Positions 13,014 through 19,785 of a stretch of 20,000 bases of DNA are shown one piece after another. This DNA is from an uncultured virus (IMG/VR IMGVR_UViG_3300032167_000098) (lineage: Duplodnaviria > Heunggongvirae > Uroviricota > Caudoviricetes): the IMG/VR virus record IMGVR_UViG_3300032167_000098, positions 53,196-73,195 of that record; one strand, given 5' to 3'. The notes beneath the pieces are model-generated. The model did no database searches. It was not told the DNA's origin and was given only the letters and a program-made list of their open reading frames with translations. Positions within the stretch are counted from its first letter, which is position 1. The number at the start of each line of letters is the position of its first letter. The position numbers were made by a program, and so were the translations under genes.

Positions 13014-14864
13014 TTATTTAGTATTATTCAATGTGGAAGCAGACCATACCCACTTAATGACTCCCGAATCGTACACACGGACAAATCCATGAGCCTCCAT
13101 TATTTCTTTTTCAGTTTGATGCTCAATATCAATAGAAGCATCGTTGAATAAACTAATCAGGTTGTGTTTTTGACACCGTACTCTATGATAATATTTATTA
13201 TCATCAATAGTTGTCCATACATAGCTGGGAGGTGTTTGATACATTCTACTAAATTGAAGTGTTTGATATAGATTACCTCTAGTATGCGCAACATCTGAAA
13301 ATGATATTACTTTGTCAGGCTGATAATGTTTTAAGAAGTATTTGAATAATTTGCTAGCACCTCCAACAACTGAACAGTTTATCAGATTGCAGAATCGAGA
13401 AAGCTCCCATGTATTTGTTTCAGTGTGAGTTGTTTTACCTATTGTGTTTCTCAAATGATTGAATGTCATAACAGAAACTAATTCATCTGTACTCTTTAAC
13501 TTGAGTCCTATGTAAACTTTAGAAGTAAGCGCACCTTGCCGATGATTACTGTTTAGAAACTCTTTTCCAACAGCAGCAGGTATCTCGAATACATAAGTTT
13601 CACGAGCTCCTATGCGACGTGCAGTACATCCTAATAAGTTTGCAATCATGGACTTAATGACATCTTTGTGAGCTTTCCATTCATATCCAAATATGTGAAA
13701 TAAGAATATACCTTGTTCTGCCGCTTTTTCTGACTTATATTGATGGTATCGATAGTGTTTTGGTTTATCACCCCAACTAGTTCCTATTGATGAGTTATGC
13801 GTAAATGCCGGATTGCATTCAAACGCTATCTGGTATTGAGGAAGATAGATGTCAAGTTCGTGTGGTGTTATCATAGATCTATCATTCTGAATGATCTCAA
13901 CATTAGGTGATATCTGTTTGATGTAATCTACTACCTCACACTCTAACTGACTATACTGATGCGATATAATATCATGACAATCATATTTAACTAAAATATC
14001 ATATATAGTAGTATCAGTTACACCTAGATCTGTCATCAGTTGAAGCATTGTAGGCTTTTCGGTATAGTGTGTCAGCACAAAGTCTCTTGGATCTGATTTG
14101 AATGCTGCGTACACATCTGCTTTTGACGGATCTGTCATGATATTGGCCAGTTCCGCTGCAGTGTATTTACGACCTTCTGGACCATAATGCTGACGATATG
14201 TATATGCTTTCTTAGCTTTGACTTCGTCATTCTGCATAGGGGATGGATGTCCGTATACAAGAGTACAAGTGAATCGACGTCCATTTAGATATCTGTCCGA
14301 TCTCATCACAGCAGAAAGTTTTCTTTTGATTTCAGGATGCTTAGCCGGATTGTCGACACCCATTCTTATTAAACACGTTTGTGCTCGCTTTTCTCGAACT
14401 TCAAGAGAGCTATTCTTCTTACTTATCTTATCTTTAACCTCTTGCAATTCGGAAACGTTGTCAACATTGTAACGTCCTCTAACTGTAGCAACATGCGCCG
14501 CATTGATACATTCTTGAGAGCAGTGCCGTGGCTTGTCTCTAGGCGAACATGTATATGATATTTCCTTTCCACAAACTTCACACAATGTTATGTGCGGACC
14601 TTTGCAGTACCTTTGCGAAGCTTGTACAGGTACAAACATCTTCCCGCACTCTTCACACTGACGCATCGGTTTTGACTGTTTAGATTGTGCAGCTAATTCA
14701 TATGCACATTCTTTCGAACAACATTTATGCGGTTCACTAGGTCGCTGATATGCAACAGGTTTTCCGCAAACAGGACATGGTCTAAAATGTGGACCTGGAC
14801 AGTACACACCATTTCCTACTCTATCAAATTCTTTACCGCAGAGTTTACAAATATATTTTGACAT
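13014..14864 (-). CDS. Hef-like free-standing endonuclease: Cys-rich Zn fingers + helical repeats + PD-(D/E)xK (DUF559/Vsr-like) nuclease + Mom-like GNAT C-terminal domain
   Basis: CxxC repeats; SQLE...ELDIYLP...IAFECN nuclease motif; FLNSNHRQG...LVSVMTF...WELSRFC...GGASKLFKYF...SFSD...GNLY. Confidence 0.75.
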   Translation of the reverse strand: MSKYICKLCGKEFDRVGNGVYCPGPHFRPCPVCGKPVAYQRPSEPHKCCSKECAYELAAQSKQSKPMRQCEECGKMFVPVQASQRYCKGPHITLCEVCGKEISYTCSPRDKPRHCSQECINAAHVATVRGRYNVDNVSELQEVKDKISKKNSSLEVREKRAQTCLIRMGVDNPAKHPEIKRKLSAVMRSDRYLNGRRFTCTLVYGHPSPMQNDEVKAKKAYTYRQHYGPEGRKYTAAELANIMTDPSKADVYAAFKSDPRDFVLTHYTEKPTMLQLMTDLGVTDTTIYDILVKYDCHDIISHQYSQLECEVVDYIKQISPNVEIIQNDRSMITPHELDIYLPQYQIAFECNPAFTHNSSIGTSWGDKPKHYRYHQYKSEKAAEQGIFLFHIFGYEWKAHKDVIKSMIANLLGCTARRIGARETYVFEIPAAVGKEFLNSNHRQGALTSKVYIGLKLKSTDELVSVMTFNHLRNTIGKTTHTETNTWELSRFCNLINCSVVGGASKLFKYFLKHYQPDKVISFSDVAHTRGNLYQTLQFSRMYQTPPSYVWTTIDDNKYYHRVRCQKHNLISLFNDASIDIEHQTEKEIMEAHGFVRVYDSGVIKWVWSASTLNNTK

Positions 14865-14941: not shown

Positions 14942-14980
14942 CAAAAAATAAAAAAAGAAATCAGCCGATTTCTCGGCTGA
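14942..14980 (-). terminator. Rho-independent terminator of the tail tube gene
   Basis: UCAGCCGA-GAAA-UCGGCUGA followed by a long U tract. Confidence 0.9.
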
Positions 14981-14998
14981 CCCTTTGGTGTTTGTTGT

Positions 14999-15523
14999 TT
15001 AGGACCTGAAATCAGATGGTTTCATGTAGATCGCTCGGGATATTACAAACGGGACTGATACTTTGACAACAGATCCACCCTCCTGGTTGTGTTCGCCGTT
15101 ATCGAGAGCTCCTATCCAAGTTCCCGGACAGCGAATTACATCTCTTGGATTTCCAGCGCCATCATATTTGATGAAATAGACTTGTCTCATATACTGAGAA
15201 GGCAAACCCATCTTTTCAGTATCTGGATCAAAAACTTGACGCCTCCAAGCCCTTAGTGCTTCAAGCACATTTGGTTCGCAGAAGCAGTTGAGCGTCCATG
15301 TAACATCTTCAAATGCAACTTTGGACGGGAACTTAATGAGACCATTAGCGTAATGTACTGTGATGATGTCTTCAGACTCTGCGATAGCTCCAACAGTATC
15401 TGTACTCAATGTGAGCAGGTCAGCAAATTCTGTCGGAGTAGTTCCATCCATGTTGTATACTCTAACTTCAAAGTTGTTTGTTGTTAGCGGTACCCAGTTG
15501 TCGATACCTAACATATGGTTGGT
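14999..15523 (-). CDS. Tail tube protein (T4 gp19-like), exon 2 (174 aa)
   Basis: PLTTNNFEV...ITVHYANGLIKFPSKVAFEDVTWT...AWRRQVFDPDTEKMGLPSQYMRQ...YDGAG...GTWI pattern of gp19-like tubes; the track's TTG start at 15544 has no RBS and lies within intron structure. Confidence 0.8.
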   Translation of the reverse strand, partial: TNHMLGIDNWVPLTTNNFEVRVYNMDGTTPTEFADLLTLSTDTVGAIAESEDIITVHYANGLIKFPSKVAFEDVTWTLNCFCEPNVLEALRAWRRQVFDPDTEKMGLPSQYMRQVYFIKYDGAGNPRDVIRCPGTWIGALDNGEHNQEGGSVVKVSVPFVISRAIYMKPSDFRS

Positions 15524-15958
15524 CATTGTGATGTATTCGCACAAGTTCGCAACGCTTGCGCCGTCATGTAAGGTATCTGATTACATGACTGCTGAATCTT
15601 TCAATTCAGATTAGAACATATCTTCATCCGTTGTGTGAACGGAGCTGTATTTTTCTTCCACCGTAGGCGATTGTGGTTCTACTCTCCCGCAAGGAGATGT
15701 TCGTTGGACGTCTTTCATGTACACCTTTATTGGATTGTGTGTATGTAGAAAGTTCGCTGCTAAACATCCATTGTTCTAAATGTGACTGTTAGCACATCCG
15801 AAGATGCTTTTATTTCAGCATAAGTCATTCGTACACTTCTTTCTGCTTTCGCTCTATCACGCTCATCTTTTCAGATCACGTTGTAGCTGTACGACTTTAG
15901 GAATTCAAAGCAGTTAACACAGGGTCATCACCAGTTACCTGATAATGAGGGCCAATCA
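15524..15958 (-). ncRNA. Group I intron (subgroup IA2-like, ORF-less, about 435 nt) in the tail tube gene
   Basis: P AACUGCUUUGAA (15904-15915), Q UUUAGCAGC (about 15756-15764), R CCAACGAACAU (15697-15707), S AAGAUAUGUUCU (15613-15624); P3 CUGUGUU/AAUACAG; P7 GAACA/UGUUC; P2, P7.1, P7.2, P8, P9 (GAAA loop), P9.1 and P9.2 hairpins; ends in G. Confidence 0.9.
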
Positions 15959-15982
15959 CCCCATCTTTAATGGTGTAAACAT
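15959..15982 (-). CDS. Tail tube protein exon 1 (MFTPLKMG)
   Basis: Strong AGGAGG RBS, ATG at 15982, 8 codons then TGA at the intron start; joins exon 2 in frame to give 182 aa. Confidence 0.8.
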
Positions 15983-16027
15983 ATCTTTATTCTCCTCCTA
16001 TAAAATAAAATGATTGTTGTATGAAGA

Positions 16028-16135: not shown

Positions 16136-16780
16136 ATGAATACTAAACGAGTGTATACTGTACGAGCTAGATATAATGTAGACAATGTTGCACAACTTGC
16201 CGAAGTACAGAAGAAGAGAGTAGCAACATTTGCTGCAAAGCGCAGTATGATGTATTATGAAAAGCCTGCAATTGATCACATCATTGATGGTCATTCTCTC
16301 ACAGTATATAAGATTCACAAACGAATTGCAGATGATTGGCTGAATCGCTATCATCCATGTAAAGCTCCAAAAGGAAACATACTTTGTTTAGGATTGGTCA
16401 AAGGAGATCAGCTTCTTTGCTTGATGACTTTCAAGAAAGCTAGAAACAAAAAGTATGTAGCAGAGATGTCACGAATGTGGACACTCTCACATTACTATAT
16501 CATTGACGGATATGATATTCTTTCACGTGCTGCATCTGAATACGGATTGTATAACATTGTAGCGTATGTTGACCTCCTGTATGAAAACGAAGAGGACTAC
16601 AAACAAATTGGAATGAAGCGTACTGGTAGCATACAAAAAACGCGATGGTGGTGTTCACCTACAGATAAGATTACAGATGCATCTCGCAGACAAAAACATC
16701 TCTCAATAGAAAGCATGAGGGAGACTGGATATCTGCCGATGTATGACTGTGGTCAAGCTGTGTATGAGTTCAAACACTAA
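16136..16780 (+). CDS. Nuclease-less paralogue of the Hef-like proteins: one helical repeat + Mom-like GNAT domain
   Basis: TVRARYNVDNVAQLAEV vs TVRGRYNVDNVSELQEV in 13014..14864; WLNRYH...LLCLMTF...EMSRM...AYVD...YKQIGM...MYDCG aligns with the C-terminal domain; AGGAG RBS. Confidence 0.75.
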   Translation: MNTKRVYTVRARYNVDNVAQLAEVQKKRVATFAAKRSMMYYEKPAIDHIIDGHSLTVYKIHKRIADDWLNRYHPCKAPKGNILCLGLVKGDQLLCLMTFKKARNKKYVAEMSRMWTLSHYYIIDGYDILSRAASEYGLYNIVAYVDLLYENEEDYKQIGMKRTGSIQKTRWWCSPTDKITDASRRQKHLSIESMRETGYLPMYDCGQAVYEFKH

Positions 16781-17829: not shown

Positions 17830-19785
17830 TCATGTGATGTATTCCCATAGTATTGTACCAGAATCAAAAACTTGAACAAATCCATGTTCTTCCATTATTT
17901 GTTTTTCTGATTTTGAGAGATCAACATCTTCATCATGCAAAAATTGTTTTATGTTTTGCTTCTGAGCACTATATCTATGATAGCTTATATCAGTACGAGC
18001 ATCGACCCAAACGTATCCGGGATCTGATTTTCTTATTTCTGTGAAGCCCAACAACTTGTAAACATTTCCACGAGTATGCGCTCTATCTGAAAATGATCTA
18101 ACGCGTGCGGGTTGATATGTTCTTACAAAGTGTTTGAATAGTTTATCTGCCCCTCCGACTACAGAAGTATTTAACTTGTTGCAGAATCTAACAAGTTCCC
18201 AACAATCAGATAGATCTGTATTGTCTGTACCAATGCTTGAGCGCATCTTACCGAAGGTCATTACAGATACTAATTCATCGTTATAGAACAGCCCCAGTCG
18301 AATCGGTGAATTAGCATTACCTTGTCTGTGATTTGCATTCAAGAAGGAAGCGCAGTCTGATGCAGATACCTCTTTAATTTGACATTGACGTGCATACAGC
18401 TTATGTGTATTCTTACCGAGCAGATTTCTCAACATTGATACGATGATTTCTCGGCTGTATGTCCACTCTGAGCCAAATATATGAAATAAGAAAATACCTT
18501 GTGATTCACACATCTCTGTTTTCTTTTGATGATAGTTGTATTTGATCGGAGGCTCATTCCTTCCGAATGTGTTCATAGATGAATTATGAGTTGATGTCGG
18601 ATTGCACTCAATTCCTATTTTGTATTCCGGCAGATACAGATCCAATTCATACGGCGTGATAACACGATGTGTATTTCGTTCAATGTTCAGATTAGGATCA
18701 ATACTCAGCAGCGCGTTATAAACTTCATTCTCCATATATGAATAGACGTATGCAACCGCGTCTCGCATGTTATTATCTTCAAGTATTTGAGCTGTGCTTC
18801 CTTCAAATATTCCAATAGATGCAGCAAGTTGCCTCAATGTAGGTTTGATTACAAACTCTTCCGAAATATACTTGTGCGGATCTTTTCTAAATCGAATCAA
18901 GTTATCAATTTTTGATGGATCTGTCATACGAAGTTGTTTCCATTGTGCACTTTGAGAAAACCATCTAACTCCATACTTCTCTTGAAACGCTTGTTCTGTA
19001 TTTGCAACCCCTAAGTCAGATTGAAGAAAACACGTATTGCCATATCGAGCTAAACATGTTGCTCGTGTCTTTTCTTTTATTGCTTCGGATTGCATCGGAT
19101 TCTCATATCCGTATTTCTCTAACCAAGAGGTTCTTGCCGATTGATATATTTCGTCACTCTGATATGGATAGTGGACACCATAATGTGCAAACAGAGTCTC
19201 TTTAGACATCGCCCGGACCTCAGGATTCGCAAATGGTTCTCTATATCCTGTTTTTGTCTCATAAGTATTGTGAGCTTTTTCTCGGATCTCAGGAACGGCT
19301 AATACACAACTTTTTCCATATTTTTCTAAATTAGTTTCTTCAATAGACGCAATAACTCGTTCTTTATATTCTGAGTCTGCCCATTTCTCTGACATCGCAC
19401 GACGACTCTCCTCAGTCTGTGTATGCCAATCGCAGCCATACTTTTCGCGATTAGTTGTCTTAGCTTGTTCGACAACATTAGCATTCTGCATTGGATGCTC
19501 GGTACCAAAGCGCTGCAAATTAGTAGCTACAATCTTTGCTTGCACTTCTGAAGAACATGCAGGGGCTACACCACCGTACACTTTCATATTAGTAGCTTTA
19601 CGAACAGCAGCTTCACACGTCTTAGAACATGTGCGCTTGCGATCTTTCTCAGTTAATCGTGACCTCGGAATCTCAAACAACTTTCCACAATTGATACACT
19701 TGTCAAAGTGCTGCCCATTACAGAAACGCTGACGTCCTGTATTTGTTTCAAACTCCTTACCGCACAATTCGCACACCTTAATCAT
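17830..19785 (-). CDS. Hef-like free-standing endonuclease: Zn fingers + about 9 helical repeats + PD-(D/E)xK nuclease + Mom-like GNAT domain
   Basis: CxxC motifs; repeated T..xYGxxxPxQ units; SYME...ELDLYLP...IGIECN; FLNANHRQG...LVSVMTF...WELVRFC...GGADKLFKHF; clear paralogue of 13014..14864. Confidence 0.75.
   Translation of the reverse strand: MIKVCELCGKEFETNTGRQRFCNGQHFDKCINCGKLFEIPRSRLTEKDRKRTCSKTCEAAVRKATNMKVYGGVAPACSSEVQAKIVATNLQRFGTEHPMQNANVVEQAKTTNREKYGCDWHTQTEESRRAMSEKWADSEYKERVIASIEETNLEKYGKSCVLAVPEIREKAHNTYETKTGYREPFANPEVRAMSKETLFAHYGVHYPYQSDEIYQSARTSWLEKYGYENPMQSEAIKEKTRATCLARYGNTCFLQSDLGVANTEQAFQEKYGVRWFSQSAQWKQLRMTDPSKIDNLIRFRKDPHKYISEEFVIKPTLRQLAASIGIFEGSTAQILEDNNMRDAVAYVYSYMENEVYNALLSIDPNLNIERNTHRVITPYELDLYLPEYKIGIECNPTSTHNSSMNTFGRNEPPIKYNYHQKKTEMCESQGIFLFHIFGSEWTYSREIIVSMLRNLLGKNTHKLYARQCQIKEVSASDCASFLNANHRQGNANSPIRLGLFYNDELVSVMTFGKMRSSIGTDNTDLSDCWELVRFCNKLNTSVVGGADKLFKHFVRTYQPARVRSFSDRAHTRGNVYKLLGFTEIRKSDPGYVWVDARTDISYHRYSAQKQNIKQFLHDEDVDLSKSEKQIMEEHGFVQVFDSGTILWEYIT

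Follow-up and report, generated by a model that had tools for sequence, protein, structure and literature searches.

A tail-tube-like gene of an uncultured phage is interrupted by a group I intron, and its coding sequence places the end of the 5' exon at a G, one base before the U of the conserved U-G wobble pair. We assign a probability of roughly 0.8 to the reading that this segment, positions 15958 to 15524 on the minus strand of the window (the whole stretch of 20,000 nucleotides that was analysed), is an IA2-type group I intron, predicted to be self-splicing, which belongs to the ribozyme lineage of the IStrons and cuts one base pair upstream of the wobble. In the proposed pathway, the 5' exon would end in a G, pairing with the CCC of the guide GCCC, and the wobble U would be intron base 1. 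Guanosine would attack between G15959 and U15958 in the first step; in the second, omega-G15524 would enter the G site and the exon-1 G would be joined to A15523. The outcome would be ...AUG GGG|ACC AAC..., encoding MFTPLKMG-TNHMLG.... That this RNA is cut at G|U is probable, judging from the coding constraints and from the experiment on the BcISt1 ribozyme set out below. The non-canonical site is very probably genuine; it characterizes a ribozyme lineage that is already known, and neither a new class of splice site nor a switch or an error is needed to account for it.

The interrupted gene and its intron

The tail-tube-like gene lies on the minus strand. Translation from the ATG at 15982-15980 yields MFTPLKMG and stops at the TGA at 15958-15956, which directly follows the ATG GGG (15964-15959) at the end of exon 1 and is itself followed by TTGGCCCTCAT (15955-15945). 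The spliced product would be a tail-tube-like protein of 182 amino acids; in a profile search it matched phrog_4542, tail tube protein (E 3e-11, residues 12-158), and no Pfam family. A large protein collection held 762 homologues of this product at E <= 0.001, one of which is labelled 'baseplate wedge protein' by one source. Comparison of exon 2 with cultured phages by tblastn gave only two distant matches (22.6% and 23.5% identity), neither with an annotated join. The features of the gene and of the intron are as follows.

About 15991-15997, minus strand: ribosome-binding site GGAGGAG, just upstream of exon 1
15959-15982, minus strand: exon 1, ATG to GGG, 8 codons encoding MFTPLKMG, which fits the N-terminus MF[ST]P[LI]xMG of the uninterrupted 181-amino-acid homologues
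15524-15958, minus strand: group I intron of 435 nt without an ORF, between the codons for Gly8 and Thr9; first base U15958, last base G15524 (omega-G)
15948-15962, minus strand: P1 hairpin in the conserved register, with pairs G15962-U15948, G15961-C15949, G15960-C15950, G15959-C15951 and U15958-G15952 and loop GAUUG at 15957-15953
15952-15955, minus strand: P10 guide bases UUGG, able to pair with exon-2 CCAA (15522-15519), A15523 being unpaired
15925-15948, minus strand: P2 hairpin of up to 10 bp (15948-15939 with 15934-15925), with GUAA loop at 15938-15935
15592-15609, minus strand: P9 hairpin CUGAAUUGAAAGAUUCAG, at the end of the Rfam alignment
15563-15589, minus strand: putative P9.1-like hairpin read from the sequence, GUCAUGUAA, a 9-nt loop and UUACAUGAC
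15538-15560, minus strand: P9.2-like hairpin whose stem is CGCAAG/CUUG(U)GCG and whose 9-nt loop, CGUUGCGAA (15554-15546), is conserved
15524-15537, minus strand: single-stranded 3' tail AAUACAUCACAAUG, ending in omega-G15524
14999-15523, minus strand: exon 2, starting at ACC 15523, 174 codons encoding TNHMLGIDNW...DFRS, and a stop codon that ends at 14999

Intron boundaries were set from intronless alleles of the gene together with 22 intron-bearing alleles. The Rfam model RF00028 matched 15592-15967 on the minus strand (model positions 1-253) with 33.3 bits and an E-value of 1.3e-6, a score that does not reach the model's gathering score of 50; a scan of the whole window with Rfam at the gathering threshold returned no match. 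An RF00028 search of the whole 73-kb virus record gave the same single match (E 4.2e-6). On our reading of the Rfam alignment, U15958 falls on the conserved splice-site U of the model. No minus-strand ORF of at least 60 amino acids was found inside 15545-15958. As expected of a group I intron, the segment ends in a G, G15524, and a G occupies the homologous place in 22 of 22 distinct alleles. The 5' exon does not terminate in the U of the P1 U-G pair, as such exons do; the pair itself exists (U15958-G15952), but the coding sequence puts the exon end at G15959. Other alleles have a GNRA-capped hairpin, equivalent to P2, directly after the guide GCCC (sequences read by eye). The stems of the P9.2-like hairpin covary among alleles and its loop, YNUUGCGA(A), is kept, the IStron ribozymes L084 and L334 included. 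A hairpin with this type of loop lies near the 3' end of every intron of the lineage (15538-15560 on the minus strand of the window, L334:1893-1914), the terminase branch having the form GUUGCG.

The preliminary description of this DNA had allowed for a sequence variant or error at the splice site, the GGG codon standing for GGT. Six of nine intronless alleles do carry GGT as their Gly codon (GGG, GGA and GGC occur once each). However, Logan contigs from four DNA runs (X2-X5, all distinct from the run that is probably the source) span 15945-15964 and agree with the window at every letter, the GGG at 15959-15961 included, and IMG/VR loci L001 and L002/L192, on contigs from other samples, are identical to the window across the same positions. 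Moreover, GGT would bring no gain, since ATGGGT followed by TGA...G|ACC lacks a base relative to the family pattern. The sequence GGGG-TGA is real, an assembly error is excluded, and the probability that GGT was misread is negligible. All four DNA runs also hold contigs that share only the 30-base piece 15857-15886, with unrelated flanks on both sides, and in runs X2 and X3 contigs stop at 15957 and resume at 15929 or 15937. The shared piece and the contig breaks suggest that the same samples contain more related introns with these words.

Coding constraints on the splice junction

Proteins and alleles without the interruption define the join. Twenty-two homologues were fetched, and 16 of them, mostly of 181 amino acids, have an N-terminus that spans the join; these read MF[STKA]P[LI]x[ML]G-TNHMLG, all with G-T-N-H. 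The other six, which include the window's own product, begin inside or after the interruption. At the DNA level, nine intronless IMG/VR alleles read (A/C)T(G/A)GGN|ACN AAY, encoding MG|TNH or LG|TNH. As the uninterrupted homologues read MF[ST]P[LI]xMG|TNHMLG, the junction is therefore G15959|U15958 ... G15524|A15523, which is the sole join in the window that gives MG|TNH together with an intron-terminal G. The preliminary description had put forward this junction, AUGGGG|U...AUG|ACC; it is supported by the comparative evidence and by an experimental precedent in homologous ribozymes, as given in the passages cited of PMC4227781.

Joins that keep U15958 in the exon fare less well. A cut after U15958 joined to the base after G15524 causes a +1 frameshift, while the same cut joined after A15523 preserves the frame, calls for an intron that ends in A and encodes MGSNH. 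The preliminary description had recognized that the canonical U-G register exists and that it brings either a frameshift or a terminal A, and this part of its account stands; it had missed, however, a 3' site after G15550 (UUG|CGAAC) which, combined with a cut after U15958, obeys the canonical rules at either end, keeps the reading frame open in the window, L009 and L011, and adds 7-9 residues. This site was rejected, as in L155/L189, L152 and L222/L205 the corresponding join loses the frame or runs into a stop; UUGCGAA, in addition, forms the loop of a hairpin with covarying stems. Other Gs, whether upstream or downstream, were likewise discarded as the 3' site. In L222 the intron frame contains a TAA as its last codon but one, which leaves no room for such a site, and the TNHM codons vary synonymously and are therefore coding.

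The shifted arrangement recurs across the intron-bearing alleles of the gene. The allele set was drawn from two pattern scans, based on the conserved 3' hairpin loop and the first exon-2 codons, and from a protein-based scan, and comprised 27 loci with an intron at this site and 22 distinct 3' ends; a 14-mer scan gave mostly chance matches, with blastn similarity to introns at 26 of 120 loci. All 17 loci that include exon 1 read TGGG|T (TGGGG|T in the window), then a short loop, then G[C/T]CC, and the GGGU/G[C/U]CC helix with its U-G pair is present in each of them. At the 3' end, the 21 non-window alleles all read G[T/C]|ACN (C in two), while the window type ends G|ACC; the base after the invariant G, being U or C, is consistent with the third base of a Gly codon. 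Cutting after the U and after the invariant G would leave one surplus base in every allele, whereas excision of U...G restores the intronless sequence. In 19 of the 21 other alleles, which have U on both sides, G|U...G|U and U|...GU| give the same product, and G|U is preferred there because a terminal G is needed. The 22 distinct tail-tube alleles, and likewise the capsid-like and terminase genes described below, all require the 5' exon to end in G, and in most of them the intron would then begin with U.

It is also conceivable that the first step is canonical, after U15958, and that the 3' site lies one base past the conserved G, the intron then ending in A15523 (in U or C elsewhere) and the product reading MFTPLKMG-S-NHMLG. 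Because this pathway differs from the preferred one by a shift of each end by one base, it maintains the frame in all alleles; it would also preserve the rule that an exon ends in the wobble U, but at the price of reversing the requirement of the group I G-binding site for a G. The intron would have A, U or C as its final base, and the G just ahead of that base is invariant in 22 of 22 alleles. Thr would become Ser, although all 16 join-spanning proteins have T, and in the capsid-like gene Ala would become Val despite intact GCA and GCT codons at the joins, the intronless L250 having the same GCT GCT there. Furthermore, L045 has no U after the exon G, and the passages cited of PMC4227781 report loss of the U from the ligated exons of BcISt1. 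We consider this pathway quite unlikely.

A further alternative is that both steps are canonical, after U15958 and after G15524, as a textbook would lead one to expect from the conserved U-G pair and the terminal G. The extra U would then stay in the mRNA, and the gene would be either broken or read with a +1 translational shift. Such an outcome would affect all 22 alleles and the capsid-like gene, which are structural genes of phages found in many samples, and no stop, rare-codon or slippery signal was seen at the joins. With the relative BcISt1 also removing its U (PMC4227781, in the passages cited), retention of the U appears very improbable, and excision from U15958 to G15524 is the reading adopted in what follows.

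P1 and P10 at the proposed cut

The minimum-free-energy fold of 15972-15921 (-17.6 kcal/mol) consists of a P1 of GGGGU/GCCCU with loop GAUUG, followed by a P2 of 9-10 bp with a GUAA loop. In this conserved register exon G15959 faces C15951, and the U-G wobble is kept, as U15958-G15952, one base pair inside the intron. The preliminary description had taken the wobble to be replaced by a G-C pair, which the 17 of 17 alleles that retain it contradict. It had also drawn P1 in a slipped register, AUGGGG/CCUCAU, in which G15959 faces another C, C15950. That register is disfavoured: it has -11.3 versus -17.6 kcal/mol, opens 4 bp of the 10-bp P2, and is absent from the 14 other alleles examined. The observation that the intron guide pairs with the ligated exons at 10 of 11 positions, the exon G opposite a C, was nevertheless correct; the ligated-exon 11-mer pairs with 15955-15945 at 10 of 11, one of these being G-U, with A15523 opposite C15951. 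A pairing of 10 of 11 was also reached by 261 of 20,000 mononucleotide shuffles of the first 40 intron bases.

Elsewhere in the family, exon 2 starts with U or C, a base that can replace the intron U on the guide G, with P10 continuing from there, so that the guide and the ligated exons would make up a single unbroken duplex. When exon-2 base +1 is placed opposite the guide G, P10 pairs at 9 of 9 positions in L232, at 8 of 9 in L220 and L221, and at 7 of 9 in L149, L231 and L233. The window intron follows GGGG (codon phase 0), while other family members follow GGG|U (phase 2), and its P10 (CCAA/UUGG) is for that reason one base out of register with P1. In register, the window P10 has the pattern x|x|x| (x, mismatch); after a one-base slip it has the pattern ||||x|, CCAA pairing with UUGG and A15523 remaining unpaired. 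The CCAA/UUGG pairing given in the preliminary description is therefore real, but it is displaced by one base from the conserved P1 in this allele. Given so poor an in-register P10, either P1 or P10 must slip in the window. In the window allele the intron may have slid naturally by one base within the G-run, uncoupling P1 from P10.

P1 might instead alternate between GGGGU/GCCCU and AUGGGG/CCUCAU, the second of which forms at a cost to P2. Splicing could require both registers, the conserved one for step 1 and the slipped one to bring P10 into line for step 2, or the alternation could be a regulatory switch. Both the 10 of 11 complementarity of the slipped register, with the shuffle frequency given above, and a window P10 that pairs only when slipped are consistent with such an alternation. 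The slipped register is, on the other hand, 6.3 kcal/mol worse in isolation and unavailable in the 14 other alleles, no signal or switch partner was found, and the switch envisaged in the preliminary description thus found nothing in its support. We regard alternation as unlikely and favour a G|U cut within the single conserved P1 register.

The lineage in other genes and in IStrons

An intron of the same lineage interrupts a capsid-like gene (L020), which reads CGT TGG G|T...GTG|CA TAT. Intronless capsid-like relatives (L247, L250, L251 and L252) have W|A/S with no extra residue, and the U belongs to the intron in this gene too because intronless L250 has C, not T, after GGG. In the gene for the terminase large subunit, 80 loci were compared; nearly all that lack an interruption have ERNGG[FY]G, and interrupted ones read ERNG followed by V, A or E, most stopping within about 30 codons. 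In all ten interrupted terminase loci with both ends present, only a G-ending exon yields a terminal G throughout. The first intron base is U in nine of these loci and A in one, and the junction is ambiguous by one G in five. P1 of the terminase branch covaries (GAG/CUC, GUG/CAC and GCG/CGC, pairs read by eye), and the base opposite the intron's first base is G, U or C, the wobble often being absent (also read by eye); in variants without it, the U stands opposite U or C, or is itself replaced by C or A.

Endonuclease-like ORFs were seen by eye in some introns of the lineage (L249:1-800, L028 and L097). The intron of L249 has a long one that contains GRYWHDKERDKRRDYF, and the intron of L028 contains an ORF resembling an HNH endonuclease. 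The lineage therefore occurs in three forms: without an ORF, with a homing-endonuclease gene, and with IS607.

Among deposited phages, the best match to the intron was Clostridium phage c-st (64.1% over 309 nt, E 1e-13, blastn), where the matching segment is followed by IS transposase OrfA and OrfB, the arrangement of an IStron. A second IStron-like copy, L084 on an IMG/VR contig, begins CATTGGG|TAAC... and has, as read by eye, an ORF resembling the N-terminus of OrfA (IS607) after P9.2. A five-way intron alignment showed a mean column identity of 67%, and extended blocks of its core were invariant. A tree built from 25 introns placed the ribozymes of the two IStrons, L084 and c-st, inside the tail-tube/capsid clade, which was split from the terminase clade at 100/100, and the window intron grouped weakly (84/88) with other tail-tube introns. 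At the c-st IStron locus (L334:1420-1432), TTGGG is followed by A and not by the U reported for group B IStrons, which counts against the proposed reading; the remaining 5' end is as in L084.

Group B IStrons comprise BcISt1 of Bacillus cereus, C. botulinum elements, and those of phages c-st and D-1873 (Tourasse et al. 2014, PMC4227781). According to the passages cited of that study, their points of insertion follow AGGG, TGGG or GAGG; the base that closes the 5' exon is G, where elsewhere it is 'virtually always a U (or exceptionally a C)'; and the junction U is the element's first base, the U-G pair being shifted by one bp. Sequencing of BcISt1 RT-PCR products found the U missing from the ligated exons and present in the full-length circle, which confirmed splicing after G, and the same passages, from 2014, leave open how these ribozymes cut one base ahead of the wobble (PMC4227781). 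For the C. botulinum IStron CboIStron, the portion cited of PMC10690162 gives 5'-TGGG-3' as the target and places the splice sites at the element ends. A literature search of openly accessible main texts found a one-base-shifted site described only in PMC4227781 and none described for stand-alone phage introns.

The window intron and the group B IStrons (BcISt1, CbISt1-4, CboIStron/CseIStron) share a homologous IA2-type core, a TGGG-type G-run site with an exon-final G and an intron-initial U, a U-G pair shifted by one bp with the P1 loop (GAUUG in the window) immediately after it, and a P9.2 hairpin with loop UGUUGCGA. Unlike them, the window intron is without an IS607 component (no ORF A or B, no omega-RNA and no long AU-rich inverted-repeat stem), whereas L334 and L084 have ORFs after P9.2; it ends in ...AAUG (CACAATG) rather than CGG; and it sits in an essential phage structural gene, after GGGG, with P1 and P10 one base off. 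As far as can be read from its sequence, it has all the ribozyme-side traits of group B IStrons and none of the transposon-side ones. The proposal of an atypical splice-site class in the preliminary description is thus supported, with the correction that this class belongs to an already known ribozyme lineage.

The window intron also resembles T4 td and other classical IA2 phage introns, in which P1 (GGGU/GCC(U/C)) is directly followed by a GNRA-capped P2, P10 is short and the host is a phage protein gene. In td, however, the exon closes with the wobble U (the Gly codon GGU in ...LG|LPF...), whereas in the window that U would leave with the intron. Twort introns have the canonical U-G site. 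Twort orf142 encodes a tail tube protein and shows exon skipping, according to the part cited of PMC11878797. Both it and the window gene are thus phage tail tube genes with group I introns, and several alleles of the window family are likewise multiply interrupted; the sequence comparison covered the intron core, whose match to Twortvirinae is weak (70.5% over about 129 nt, blastn).

There is perhaps an even chance that the shifted site is a trait of the whole lineage, common as ordinary introns (ORF-less or with a homing endonuclease) in genes for tail-tube, capsid and terminase proteins of uncultured phages from the gut and the rumen, and not a peculiarity of IStrons; wobble-less terminase sites would then be chosen by the G-C pair and helix geometry, to which the window allele would add a slide that uncouples P1 from P10. 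New here are the small stand-alone introns in three phage genes, the wobble-less natural variants and the putative one-base slide in the window allele. Natural ribozymes of 370-446 nt would behave like IStron ribozymes without the transposon part. The natural variant set (22 alleles of one gene, and two other genes), together with the uncoupled window allele, provides material for testing cleavage-site choice. Annotation pipelines that assume an exon-terminal U would put the exon joins of these genes one base off.

The interrupted gene is accompanied on its two sides by three paralogous genes, at 13014-14864 (minus strand), 17830-19785 (minus strand) and 16136-16780 (plus strand). Their products, of 616, 651 and 214 amino acids, match homing-endonuclease and HNH families (phrog_3339, E 3e-91 and 2e-114; phrog_559). 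It is possible that these endonuclease-like genes move the ORF-less intron, by collaborative homing. A tie between the gene for the 616-amino-acid protein and the presence of the intron was considered, and no clear link emerged, relatives of this gene adjoining both intron-bearing and intronless alleles.

Several alleles show additional breaks. The tail-tube-like gene of L012 reads MFSPLKMGTN and then TAA, with exon 1 at 576 and homology picking up at query residue 18; its 5' site appears canonical, with GAAU pairing with GUUC and U as the final exon base. In L220, L239 and L242, the reading frame of exon 2 is interrupted after 12-16 residues. Going by these reading frames, the tail-tube-like gene is interrupted at further sites in some phages (L012, L220, L239 and L242). 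In the window, the stop codon of the tail-tube-like gene is immediately followed by an inverted repeat rich in G+C, UCAGCCGA GAAA UCGGCUGA, and then by a U run (about 14950-14985, minus strand), which together look, by eye, like an intrinsic terminator.
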